Below are positions 21,001-24,000 of a stretch of 64,000 bases of DNA, piece by piece. The position numbers are program-made. The DNA comes from a bacterium. Lineage in GTDB: Bacteria; Myxococcota; UBA727; JAUIJE01. Within the stretch, counting starts at the first letter, position 1, and each line of letters opens with the position of its first letter. Location: assembly GCA_030431455.1 (NCBI GenBank), contig JAUIJE010000002.1, forward strand, positions 1,294 to 65,293, read 5' to 3'.

Positions 21001-24000
21001 GGGTGGGGGCGGACCTTCCGGGGGCCGCGGGGGCCCCTCCACCGCCGGCTCGGCGTCGGGCTCACCGGCGGACGCGGGCCCCGCGAGCAAACCCCCCGCC
21101 ACCAGCAAGACCATCAGCCAGACGATGCGCGCCACGCGGCACGATACCCTGGGGCCGTGACCAGCGGAAGCGAGGGCGCCACGGGCGACGGGCCCGATCT
21201 CCCAAACAAGACGACACAGGTTTCTGACGTGGGTGAGGCGTGGCAACGCTTTGCGTTGCTCAAGCCATTCCTCTGGACTGGCGGCACGTACGCCGACCGA
21301 GCAGACTCCCATCGACCTCATGCGCGGTGAACAAGGCCCGGCTCGAACGCGCCGAGGGCGATTTTGAGACGGGTGAGATGTGTTCTAGAGCCGCCAGAAC
21401 GTCCACGCCGGCGCGTCCCGGGTAAAGCGACCGGACCGGTGCTTGTCGAGAGACTCCAGTAACATTTGTTTGTAGAGGTCGGCCTCGGGCTGGTAGCGCC
21501 GGGTGAGACCGGCCTGCAGATTGTAGAGCCCTTCCCCGTCGGGGGTGAGCACGTAGGTCCGCGCGTAGAACCAATAGAAGAACGGCTGATTCACCTCTCG
21601 TTCGTCGTCGACCATCAGCTCCCAGTCCGCGTTCTTGATCGCGGGGATGTCGGGCCAGCTCTGCTTGCGAATGTCGACCCAGAGGGGCACGAACTCCTCG
21701 CGCACGAGCTTGATCACCGCGGGGTCACTGAGCGCGCCCTCCCGGAGCGCGTGTCCGCCAATTCAAAGCAGGCCGTCGACCTCACCCGACGCGCCCACGA
21801 GCAGGATCGGCTTCTGCTCGAGCATCGCCTGGGCCCGGGCCCGTTCGTAGTCGTGGTGCCAGCCGATGGCCATGTGGGGCTGCCACGGGTCCGGGATGTG
21901 GGTGACGGGGGCGCAGGCGGTCACCGCGAGGGTGACCGAACAGGCGACGAGCGCGGTGCGCATAAGACCTCCGGCCGCAGGGGTGCACTCCCGATTGGCG
22001 GGGCAGGCACAGATCTGTCACCGGAGCCCGGTTTTTTTCGCCGCGGGGTGGCCGGCGCGGTCACATGCCGCCGGGGGCGGGGTGTGGCATACAGACGGAA
22101 CAGGAGGTTTTTATGCAGAGCGGTCGGGTCGTGATGGGGTGCGTGATGATGGCGGTGGTGGCCACCGGGTGTTCTGTCACCGATGAGAAAGGCAACAGCT
22201 GCGGCGCGCTGGACGCGCTGACCAATTCCGCCGACGAGACGTACTGTCCCGACGACGGTGCCCCCGACGACTGCGACGACCTGCTCGATGACTTCATCGG
22301 CGCGTTCGCCGATTGTGGCGGCGTCACCGAACAAGCCCTGCGCGCCGAGCTGGAGGAAGGCGACGGCCTGCCCTTCGACTGCGCCAACGCGGTGGCCACC
22401 ACCACCGGCTACGATGACTGCCGGGACGCGTACCGGCCGGGCAACTACACCTGCGACGGCAGCATCCCCGACGTGGACAGTGACATTTGTTCGGGGGTGA
22501 TCTTGGTGGACGCGAACGAATAGCCGCGCGCCCGACGTCTTGAAAAAAGAAAGCCGCTCTCTCGAGCGGCTCTTCTTTTTGTGCACAGCGGCGTCGTTCA
22601 GTAGCGGTAGTGATCCGGCTTGAACGGGCCCTGTTGGGGAATGCCAAGGTACTCCGCTTGTTTCTTGCTCAGCTTGGTGAGCTTGGCCCCGACCTTGGCG
22701 AGGTGCAGCTCGGCCACCTTCTCGTCGAGGTGCTTGGGCAGCACGAACACCTTGTCGGTGCTGTAGTGCCGCACCGAAAGCTGCGCGTCTTCCCAGAGCG
22801 CGATCTGCGCCATGGTCTGGTTGGTGAACGAGTTCGACATCACGAAGCTCGGGTGACCGGTGGCGCAGCCGAGGTTGACCAGGCGGCCGCGGGCGAGCAC
22901 GGTGATGCGCTTGCCGTCGGGGAAGATGAAGTGGTCGACCTGGGGCTTGACCGCTTCTTCGCGAATCTCGGGGTGGTTCTCGAGCCAGGACATCTGGATC
23001 TCGGAATCGAAGTGCCCGATGTTGCAGACGATGGCTTCGTCTTTCATCGCTTGCATGTGATCGCCGGTGATGACGTCGCAGCAACCGGTGGAGGTCACGA
23101 AGATGTCGCCGACCTTGGCCGCGTCTTCCATGGTGGTGACCTCGAAGCCTTCCATCGCCGCTTGCAGCGCACAGATGGGATCGATTTCGGTGATCATCAC
23201 CCGGGCCCCGAGGCCTTTGGCGGATTGGGCGCAGCCCTTGCCGACGTCGCCGTAGCCGGCCACCACGACGACCTTGCCCGCGATCATCACGTCGGTGGCG
23301 CGCTTGATGCCGTCCATGAGGGACTCACGGCAACCGTAGAGGTTGTCGAACTTGGACTTGGTCACCGAGTCGTTCACGTTGATGGCGGGGAACAGCAGCT
23401 TGCCGTGCTCGGCCATTTCGTAGAGGCGGTGCACCCCGGTGGTGGTCTCTTCGGACACGCCGAGGATGTCTTTGTGCATCTTGGTGAAACGCTGCGGGTC
23501 CTCTTCGATGGATTTTTGCAGCGTACGGTACACCCACTTCATCTCTTCAATGTCAGTGGAGTCGGGGGACGGGACCTTGCCCGCTTTTTCGAACTCCACG
23601 CCTTTGTGGATGAGCATGGTGAGGTCGCCACCGTCGTCGAGCAGGAGGTTGGGGCCTTGGCCGCCCTCGAACGCGGTGACCTGGGTGAGGATCTGCGCCC
23701 AGTACTCTTCGAGGCTCTCGCCTTTCCACGCGAACACCGGGGTCCCGGTGGCGGCGATGGCCGCGGCGGCGTGGTCTTGGGTCGAGTAGATGTTGCAGCT
23801 GGTCCAGGTCACGTCGGCGCCGAGGTCCTTGAGGGTCTCGATCAGCACCGCGGTCTGGATGGTCATGTGCAGGCAGCCGGCGACGCGCGCGCCCTTGAGC
23901 GGGTGCTTGCCCTTGTACTCGTCGCGCAGGGCCATGAGGCCGGGCATCTCTTTTTCGGCGATGGCGATCTCCTTGCGGCCCCAGTCCGCGAGGGTCATGT

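Follow-up and report, generated by a model that had tools for sequence, protein, structure and literature searches.

Two adjacent open reading frames on the minus strand (21963..21763 and 21762..21385) of the 64,000-nucleotide stretch of myxococcotal DNA analysed here (the window) lie in the same frame and are parted by a single TGA at 21765-21763. The question raised by this locus is whether the TGA is a true end of translation, a mutation or an error, or whether it is read as selenocysteine (Sec) within one gene. The original prediction favoured the last of these, describing a thioredoxin-fold lipoprotein with a TGA at the catalytic Cys position and a bulged-U hairpin downstream, and named a recent nonsense pseudogene and a sequencing error as alternatives. 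From the analyses described below, we consider it highly probable that the locus is one gene, encoding an approximately 19 kDa bacterial thioredoxin-fold lipoprotein with an active-site selenocysteine, and that it belongs to a family which has been split by annotation and is missing from the selenoprotein catalogues consulted.

One reading frame and its in-frame TGA

Translation of 21963..21385 on the minus strand confirmed that the two reading frames form one gene, interrupted by the TGA only. The frame runs from an ATG start codon (21963-21961) to a terminal TAG (21387-21385), and comprises 192 codons in which the TGA is the sole internal stop, with no further stops or frameshifts; a Shine-Dalgarno-like GGAGG, read from the sequence, is positioned 4 nt upstream of the ATG (21968..21972, minus strand). 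Composition is of the coding type on both sides of the TGA, with GC3 values of 0.88 and 0.86 and GC2 values of 0.54 and 0.41. Frame, composition and dN/dS (see below) together point to a complete selenoprotein gene at 21385..21963 (minus strand) containing one in-frame UGA, at codon 67 (21763..21765, minus strand), which conservation and alignment predict to be the selenocysteine codon. Public collections hold the gene as two annotation artefacts, both on the minus strand: a 66-residue ORF ending at the predicted Sec codon (21763..21963; protein P0047), and a 110-residue ORF called from an internal GTG (21385..21717; protein P0001).

Most genes in the window end in TGA as their ordinary stop codon, and a genome-wide reassignment of UGA is therefore ruled out. 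Two other same-frame TGA junctions, both on the plus strand, were considered as selenoprotein candidates and rejected; those at 30653-30655 and 50788-50790 simply terminate a TetR-like gene and an aminopeptidase-like gene, respectively, each followed by a separate gene.

The N-terminal region agrees with the lipoprotein assignment of the original prediction. Inspection of the sequence reveals a signal peptide (21913..21963, minus strand) ending in the lipobox V-T-A-C, which conforms to the pattern [LVI][ASTVI][GAS]C, with Cys17 (codon 21915-21913) as the predicted lipidation site. Cys17 is invariant in an alignment of 15 full-length family members, and a lipobox of the L-[AST]-G-C type is present in every full-length relative; a lipoprotein nature is predicted to be common to all members of the family.

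Three independent runs (ERR3428548, ERR3420974 and SRR33155351), as assembled in Logan, all contain the TGA together with its flanks, and the same TGA is found in metagenome-assembled genomes (MAGs) labelled Myxococcales and Polyangia. It is retained in three diverged orthologs (L001/L002, L003 and L055; approximately 64-67% amino-acid identity where measured), in which the adjoining codons vary synonymously. At a Sec codon, orthologs were expected to carry either TGA or a Cys codon, and this is what was observed for 44 related metagenome loci, with TGA at 39 and TGC (Cys) at five; the ORF is open and conserved upstream of this position across these loci. An exhaustive HMMER search returned 43 matches, of which 37 are short proteins whose start coincides with the TGA position or lies just downstream of it (many with 'MGG.LR') and four are intact full-length proteins, each with Cys at the TGA position. 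Full-length Cys proteins (P0004, P0012, P0024, P0031 and P0050-P0057) align their Cys to the TGA. Exceptions at the Sec codon are CGA (Arg) in one relative and Gly in P0044. Species-representative genomes, when searched with peptide patterns specific to the narrow subgroup of the window protein, gave no match, a result which is silent on the wider family. In comparison with ortholog L001, dN/dS is 0.13 upstream of the TGA and 0.18 downstream, with dS above 1.2, values which indicate purifying selection on both halves of the gene.

Fold and active site

The joined protein had been read as a single Thioredoxin_7/DUF255-like domain, with the TGA at the first Cys of a CxxC motif; both assignments are supported, with refinements. 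An AlphaFold model of a Cys homolog has a Thioredoxin_7/DsbH-type fold with the Cys/Sec position at the N-terminus of helix 1, and it is on this model of a homolog that we assign a thioredoxin fold, with a redox residue at the N-terminus of helix 1, to the mature domain (residues 18-192; 21388..21912, minus strand). Profile scores are below threshold: the window protein scores 17.7 bits against PF03190 (Thioredox_DsbH) and 15.8 bits against PF13899 (Thioredoxin_7), where the gathering threshold is 27, and no Pfam or NCBIfam model reaches threshold for it. Among five relatives scanned, P0031 alone passes the PF03190 threshold (28.5 bits).

A profile alignment to PDB 3ira, a DUF255 structure, places the TGA on the first Cys of C-H-W-C, as had been proposed; the second Cys of the CxxC motif (+3 position), however, is replaced by Gly or Ala in every member, so that the family lacks the CxxC dithiol. 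The predicted motif is U-x-x-G, not U-x-x-C, and has no resolving Cys at +3. In the window protein the active-site motif is G-L-L-U-I-G-G-H, located at the N-terminus of helix 1, and the mature chain contains no other Cys. Most family members have a vicinal Cys-Sec pair, with the Cys directly before the Sec, whilst the subgroup to which the window protein belongs (motif G-L-L-U-I-G-[GA]-H) has a lone Sec. The conserved core of the family comprises the segments FVPVW[IV][ND][IV]R, F-x-x-R-[ST] and SPDG..LLN, and three arginines (R74, R99 and R135 in window numbering) are invariant.

The SECIS-like hairpin and alternatives to Sec decoding

The local minimum-energy fold (-11.1 kcal/mol) downstream of the TGA is a SECIS-like hairpin, as originally predicted, formed by nt 15-33 after the U of the UGA (21733..21751, minus strand). 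Its stem consists of 7 bp (C15-G33, G16-C32, C17-G31, G18-C30, C19-G29, C21-G28 and C22-G27) with one bulged U (U20; 21746), and is closed by the apical loop GGGA (21743-21740); the hairpin begins 11 nt after the UGA, with a UGA-to-loop spacing of 19 nt. [quoted passage not shown] 2). The window hairpin agrees with these rules in loop, spacing and energy; only 2 bp lie above the bulge. Most Sec forms of the family have a rule-compliant hairpin at a spacing of 18-20 nt, and for a minority, including the window, an unconstrained search chose other hairpins at a spacing of 26-32 nt. The SECIS element of Escherichia coli fdhF has an 11-nt spacer, a bulged U17, and G23 and U24; the window hairpin likewise starts 11 nt after the UGA and has a bulged U, but is otherwise without sequence similarity to it.

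Dinucleotide-shuffled versions of this 70% GC sequence are as stable as the hairpin region taken alone (z = -0.18), and the significance of the hairpin therefore rests on comparison with relatives only. The consensus of 38 distinct family sequences is a 6-bp stem, in the same place as the window hairpin, with a loop starting G23 G24; 87% of the cells in the consensus stem are paired, versus 37-56% when the partner strand is slid, and compensatory changes occur at pair 21:29 (CG 31, GC 4, UA 1, GU 1). For the Arg codon supplying the G residues of the loop, 36 of 38 Sec forms use CGG and all four Cys forms use CGC, against a CGG background of 31%, and codons are synonymously conserved at 6/8 positions inside the hairpin versus 29/83 elsewhere (P = 0.034). 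A covariance model built without the window's subgroup scores the hairpin at 42.9 bits (E 7e-10), the sole match in the window. In the register of the family consensus the window hairpin has a U-C mismatch, such that its exact fold is ambiguous, and since the stem does not vary among members of the subgroup containing the window gene, it is the family at large that supplies the covariation evidence. Rfam gave no match to the locus or to any other part of the window; a generic bacterial SECIS model is not known to exist in Rfam. The hairpin, the conserved TGA, the Cys homologs and the purifying selection all support the in-frame TGA as a candidate Sec codon.

These observations contradict both alternatives named in the original prediction. 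A recent nonsense pseudogene, in which mutation has turned a Cys codon (TGC/TGT) into TGA and decay of the gene has set in, is conceivable in that TGC is one substitution from TGA and Cys forms of the family exist; however, the presence of the same TGA in the three diverged orthologs and in 39 of the 44 family loci, selection on both halves at saturated synonymous divergence, and a frame free of further lesions of the kind sought (stops or frameshifts) leave this explanation with a very slim probability. A sequencing or assembly error at the single TGA base, for which only the general possibility of such errors speaks, has a probability close to nil, the base being identical in assemblies of three independent read sets and the TGA being family-wide. 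It is also highly improbable that the locus encodes two separate proteins by programmed termination, i.e. a 66-residue lipopeptide and an independently initiated C-terminal protein: gene callers do annotate two ORFs, but the split would separate strand 1 from helix 1 within one thioredoxin fold, the triplet that follows the TGA is in most cases ATC or ATT, not a start codon, the called starts vary among loci, and the Cys forms are single full-length proteins.

The remaining alternative concerns the host, and supposes that the gene was stranded by loss of the Sec machinery, being now either non-functional or subject to low-level read-through by a near-cognate tRNA (Trp/Cys). Sporadic loss of the Sec trait is a known phenomenon. 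Among 30 window ORFs scanned against Pfam there was no selA/selB/selD-type gene, no tRNA gene was found in the 64 kb window, and the sequences flanking 28 related loci yielded no tRNA-Sec; the Sec position also appears to be replaceable, as judged from the Arg and Gly exceptions noted above. Against this, the TGA, hairpin and coding sequence of the subgroup are intact and constrained, and any loss of the Sec machinery would have to be very recent; we regard a stranded gene as very improbable. The family shares no conserved gene neighbourhood, and the neighbours differ: one clade is located beside sulfatases, one MAG has the gene beside lspA and lgt, and another has it beside AhpC/DsbA-like genes.

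Possible mechanism and relationship to known families

For a functional selenoprotein, the established bacterial Sec pathway suggests that SelB-GTP-Sec-tRNA(Sec) would bind the hairpin and that SelB would deliver Sec to UGA codon 67, with the ribosome going on into the C-terminal 125 residues. After export, the precursor would presumably receive its lipid on Cys17 and remain anchored to the cell envelope. The Cys-homolog model and the alignment place the Sec, at the N-terminus of helix 1, in the position of the nucleophilic Cys of a thioredoxin-type CxxC motif. The vicinal C-U pair present in most relatives could close a selenenylsulfide; members of the window's subgroup have no second Cys in the mature protein, and if active would therefore have to act as mono-selenols. 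In these, the lone Sec may attack an oxidised substrate (disulfide, sulfenate or peroxide, or perhaps an oxyanion that the three invariant arginines hold in place) to give a mixed Se-S or Se-O intermediate, from which an external envelope thiol would recycle the Sec. Whether the family might constitute a new class of envelope-anchored selenoenzyme, with a vicinal Cys-Sec pair or a lone Sec surrounded by three arginines and operating other than by classical dithiol-disulfide exchange, is a speculative proposal that we consider possible but rather unlikely; if it is true, the chemistry could, for example, be the reduction or capture of selenite, arsenate, thiosulfate or sulfite, or periplasmic peroxide reduction.

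A precedent for the vicinal pair is mammalian thioredoxin reductase, in which a C-terminal Gly-Cys-Sec-Gly redox centre forms a selenenylsulfide. Most members of the present family have vicinal Cys-Sec followed by x-Gly-Gly and could form the same bond, although the mammalian pair is carried on a flexible C-terminal tail, whereas the present pair lies in a thioredoxin fold, at its active site on helix 1, and the window protein lacks the Cys.

The best-scoring curated family is that of the VPGUxxT thioredoxin-like (seleno)proteins (NF041383/NF041382), listed in PMC13188914 as the 'hypothetical protein OS_HP5' from the study of the Olavius symbiont. These are likewise thioredoxin-like, with Sec/Cys in the strand 1-helix 1 region, and the match, over profile positions 4-65, includes this region. 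Scores against NF041383 are 19-27 bits, compared with a cut-off of 275, for the window protein, for the Cys homologs and for all but one of the seven CU-type members, that one giving no match. The motifs differ (V-P-G-U-x-x-T versus G-x-[C/L]-U-[IVLYF]-G-[GA], which is G-L-L-U-I-G-G in the window protein), as do the lengths (profiles of 287-349 versus a protein of approximately 190 residues); the VPGUxxT family is at most a distant sister family of the one described here. The Trx7/PDZ selenoprotein (NF041199; Pfam Thioredoxin_7, CxxU) is the only catalogued selenoprotein with a Thioredoxin_7 fold (PMC9312934, PMC13188914). It carries Sec at the second position of CxxU together with a PDZ domain, in contrast to the present family, which has Sec at the first position, Gly/Ala at +3 and no PDZ domain; the window protein scores 11.5 bits against NF041199 (cut-off 300) and has no PDZ match. 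Members of the Thioredoxin_7, Thioredox_DsbH (DUF255), DsbD-gamma and AGR2-AGR3-ERp18 groups use Cys, whereas the present family has Sec and a conserved core of its own.

The family was not found in current selenoprotein catalogues; the 2026 catalogue of 119 families/subfamilies lists no Pfam or NCBIfam domain that is matched at threshold by the present proteins, and the literature on Sec-containing DUF255/Thioredoxin_7 families yielded only the CxxU Trx7/PDZ protein. As far as sequence evidence goes, this is very probably a genuine selenoprotein gene of an apparently undescribed family. It would add a family to the prokaryotic selenoproteome; the 119 include no lipoprotein of the Thioredoxin_7/DsbH type whose Sec occupies the first position of CxxC. 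Its members come mostly from soil metagenomes, and also from Myxococcota MAGs; large selenoprotein surveys have mainly used marine and gut/anaerobe data sets. For annotation, the gene and approximately forty relatives are publicly split into pairs of 'hypothetical proteins', and reading the UGA as Sec would restore a complete redox protein. The family model of UGA plus hairpin would serve directly as a test set for predictors of bacterial SECIS elements, and the vicinal Cys-Sec, lone-Sec and Cys-only forms of one fold would offer a natural series on the contribution of Sec at a thioredoxin active site.

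Retention of the in-frame TGA in the gene and its family

The candidate selenoprotein gene lies at 21963..21385 (-), where a frame of 192 codons contains a single internal stop, TGA at 21765-21763 (-), before the terminal TAG; translation thus agrees with the original prediction of two minus-strand ORFs in one frame, split by that TGA alone. Mechanical ORF calling returns a 66-residue N-terminal piece (21763..21963 (-)) and a 110-residue C-terminal piece with an internal GTG as its start (21385..21717 (-)), which are present in public collections as two separate, unnamed proteins. 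The stop-to-stop segments either side of the TGA have coding-type composition (GC3 0.88 and 0.86; GC2 0.54 and 0.41) in a window of ~69% GC. GGAGG lies 4 bases upstream of the ATG, and the encoded N-terminus has the look of a signal peptide carrying the lipobox V-T-A-C17. Since most coding-like ORFs of the window terminate in TGA, UGA is not generally reassigned. Two further TGA codons between same-frame coding-like segments mark ordinary gene ends and no selenoprotein: 30653-30655 (+) closes a TetR-like regulator, with a large gene after it, and 50788-50790 (+) an Xaa-Pro aminopeptidase-like gene that precedes a small lipoprotein gene (all names are readings of the translations).

A sequencing error at the TGA is ruled out by assemblies from three independent sequencing runs, in which the TGA and its flanks are identical. 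The TGA is also kept at the equivalent codon in three diverged orthologs from other metagenomes (L001/L002, L003 and L055; ~64–67% amino-acid identity to the window protein where measured), with synonymous differences in the codons around it (CTT/TTG, GGC/GGG, GGA/GCC). Between the window gene and L001, dN/dS is 0.13 before the TGA (46 codons) and 0.18 after it (125 codons), with dS above 1.2 on both sides; low dN/dS with saturated dS indicates that both halves have been retained as coding sequence with the TGA kept. A recent nonsense mutation is therefore ruled out by the TGA in diverged orthologs together with purifying selection on both halves. It is highly probable that UGA is decoded as selenocysteine (Sec) in this organism, and the small remaining probability falls mostly to the possibility of a selenoprotein gene that was stranded very recently.

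With the C-terminal half as query, HMMER was run exhaustively against 1.84 billion representative proteins and gave 43 matches, 37 of which are short proteins that start at or just past the position after the TGA, many with 'MGG.LR...', a footprint of gene callers restarting after the stop. In all four intact full-length matches, Cys occupies the TGA position (P0004, GKT-C-IGAH; P0012, AC-C-VGAD; P0024, PT-C-LGGD; P0031, PC-C-YGAD). A DNA-level scan of JGI metagenomes found 46 loci, and the 44 that include the codon divide into 39 with TGA and 5 with TGC; at every TGA locus the upstream frame is open and encodes the conserved N-terminal ...W..[FY]..A...A....[KR]P.L......AG... pattern. The original prediction had looked to related genes for either TGA or Cys at this codon; orthologs carry TGA, and Cys stands in full-length homologs and at the five TGC loci. 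Further members came from a second profile search, in the MAGs GCA_009692555.1 ('Myxococcales bacterium') and GCA_044450555.1 ('Polyangia bacterium'), both with an in-frame TGA and annotated as hypothetical proteins. A lipobox is present in all full-length members, and no family member carries a selenoprotein label in any source.

A few members depart from this pattern. In L057, a single 1.1 kb Logan contig, the Sec codon is CGA (Arg; 706-708, protein P0058) within S-C-R-I-G-G, and the protein sequence P0044 reads L-C-G-Y-G-G-D, with Gly at the Sec position; a single substitution separates CGA from TGA, and the same would hold for a GGA Gly codon, and the two could be real losses or errors. 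P0043 (356 aa), which fuses DUF1800 and DNA-methylase segments to the family's C-terminal half, probably reflects a chimera or a mis-assembly.

A SECIS-like hairpin downstream of the UGA

Bacterial SECIS elements are modelled with a 3–9 nt loop having G in its first two positions, a 4–16 bp upper stem, a UGA–loop gap of 16–37 nt and a minimum free energy of -7.5 kcal/mol or lower (PMC13188914). Counting the U of UGA as position 1, a consensus hairpin is common to 38 distinct Sec-form sequences (stem 17-22:28-33, loop 23-27), with G23 invariant and G24 at least 90% conserved. Standard pairs fill 87% of stem cells, compared with 37–56% when the 3′ partner is slid by 1–3 columns, and none of 500 shuffles reached the observed covariation score. 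Pair 21:29 is compensatory (CG 31, GC 4, UA 1, GU 1), through a synonymous Leu-codon change and a Gly to Ala/Glu replacement four codons later. The loop G's come from an Arg codon, for which 36 of the 38 Sec forms use CGG and the other 2 CGT; all four distinct Cys forms have CGC there. Elsewhere in these genes, only 31% of Arg codons are CGG. Most Sec forms contain a hairpin fitting the published rules at a spacing of 18–20 nt; for a minority, the window included, an unconstrained search chose other hairpins at 26–32 nt.

Local folding of nt 15–33 at the window locus gives, as its minimum-energy structure, exactly the bulged-U hairpin with a GGGA loop originally proposed: five G-C pairs, bulged U20 and two C-G pairs, at -11.1 kcal/mol and a spacing of 19 nt. 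The stability of the region does not exceed that of shuffled versions of this GC-rich sequence (z = -0.18). In the window's subgroup the register lies two positions away from the family consensus, in whose own register the subgroup would have a U-C mismatch, so the exact fold given for the window hairpin is tentative. The stem is invariant within the subgroup, an unusual absence of variation: codons identical across three orthologs number 6 of 8 in the hairpin and 29 of 83 elsewhere (Fisher P = 0.034), and variation in the stem-loop is confined to loop nucleotide 24, where the model permits both of the bases seen, G and U. When a covariance model was trained on 31 family sequences, leaving out this subgroup, its sole significant match within the window was 21765..21726 (42.9 bits, E 7e-10; the runner-up scored 12.7 bits), a result owed mostly to sequence homology. 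No Rfam family matched the hairpin locus.

Genomic neighbourhoods

Neighbourhoods of family members vary between clades. In the K-D-K-C-U-I-G-G clade (L013, L014, L019, L022, L023, L032), sulfatase genes lie immediately downstream of the selenoprotein gene, up to three in the longest loci (for example L014, 6403-10820; Pfam Sulfatase E down to 1e-59), with response-regulator and histidine-kinase genes upstream; this sulfatase neighbourhood was not seen in other clades or in the window. In the Myxococcales MAG GCA_009692555.1 (L053, 6002-10384), lspA (signal peptidase II) and two lgt (prolipoprotein diacylglyceryl transferase) genes, encoding lipoprotein maturation enzymes, lie upstream on the same strand, and in the Polyangia MAG GCA_044450555.1 (L056, 624-2002) AhpC/TSA-Redoxin and DsbA/Thioredoxin_4 genes adjoin the family member on the opposite strand.

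The window holds no informative same-operon neighbour. The flanking small ORFs at 20366-20626 (-), 20626-21321 (-) and 22065-22520 (+) resemble Cys-rich or low-complexity lipoproteins, and scans of the latter two gave no Pfam match. Within 5 kb of the selenoprotein gene lie genes for a thiopurine S-methyltransferase/TehB-like methyltransferase (16499-17101 (-)), an ArsR-HTH–SAM methyltransferase fusion (24088-25176 (-)) and S-adenosylhomocysteine hydrolase (22601-24043 (-)); these three methylation-related genes do not share an operon with it, because an opposite-strand gene intervenes. Bacterial TPMT/TehB-type enzymes have been linked to selenium and tellurium methylation. Further away are a bacterial calpain-family cysteine protease (33218-34642 (-)), a protein with a copper type II ascorbate-dependent monooxygenase C-terminal domain (27787-29100 (-)), both domains being, to our knowledge, unusual in bacteria, and a DUF1552 (HXXSHH) protein (58511-59923 (+)). 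The Myxococcales and Polyangia labels of the MAG relatives suggest a Myxococcota host, and the window's Cys-rich lipoproteins, DUF1552 protein and calpain may weakly point in that direction too. No sel gene was present among the 30 window ORFs scanned against Pfam, a tRNA scan of the whole window gave no tRNA gene, and no second selenoprotein gene turned up there. At the related locus L028, ARAGORN called an 87-nt 'tRNA-Gly (GCC)' at 9035-9121 (+), ~10 nt above normal tRNA-Gly length.

Fold, active site and relation to known selenoproteins

Pfam gave only sub-threshold matches to Thioredox_DsbH/DUF255 and Thioredoxin_7 for the window protein, and one of five relatives scanned passes threshold. 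An AlphaFold2 model of P0004, the closest full-length Cys homolog (41% identity to the window protein over the full length, 44% in the C-terminal half), was built with the family alignment (mean pLDDT 87, pTM 0.76) and places Cys80 directly between strand 66-71 and helix 81-88; the predicted thioredoxin fold thus carries the Sec/Cys residue at the nucleophile position. Profile alignment to 3ira sets Sec/Cys on the first Cys of C-H-W-C, where the original prediction had put it, and Gly on the second; the motif is accordingly U-x-x-G/A rather than the U-x-x-C of a CxxC site. In most Sec forms a Cys directly precedes Sec (C-U), Cys forms have a single Cys or C-C, and the window's subgroup reads L-L-U with no other Cys in the mature protein. 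In window numbering, the lipobox Cys, W35, P52, G60, U/C67, G69, R74, P93, W95, R99, P104 and P141 are invariant in the family, and R135 and N148 nearly so.

Among the many selenoprotein models of the June 2026 NCBIfam release, VPGUxxT type 2 is the best match, at 19–27 bits against a cut-off of 275, for the window protein, Cys homologs and six of the seven C-U members tested (the seventh has no match), scores that point to a distant relationship rather than membership. The table of a 2026 review, covering 119 families or subfamilies of prokaryotic selenoproteins with domain identifiers, has no entry that combines PF03190 or PF13899 with a first-position Sec; its one entry built on Thioredoxin_7, the Trx7/PDZ protein, differs in having the motif CxxU (PMC13188914). 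Given the weak NCBIfam match and the lack of a matching review entry, we treat the family as apparently undescribed. With its conserved UGA, Cys/Sec alternation, covarying SECIS-like hairpin, thioredoxin fold and lipoprotein signals, the window gene appears to be a genuine selenoprotein gene of this family.

On the model of the established route in bacteria, SelB carrying Sec-tRNA(Sec) would read the hairpin and insert Sec, and the protein would then be exported, lipidated and anchored in the envelope. More tentatively, the selenol may attack an oxidised substrate, with resolution perhaps by the adjacent Cys in C-U forms and by an external thiol in the lone-Sec form of the window. Thioredoxin-fold selenoproteins with a bacterial SECIS are a well-known kind, so the category is not new; what is new here is the active-site arrangement and the lipoprotein anchoring.
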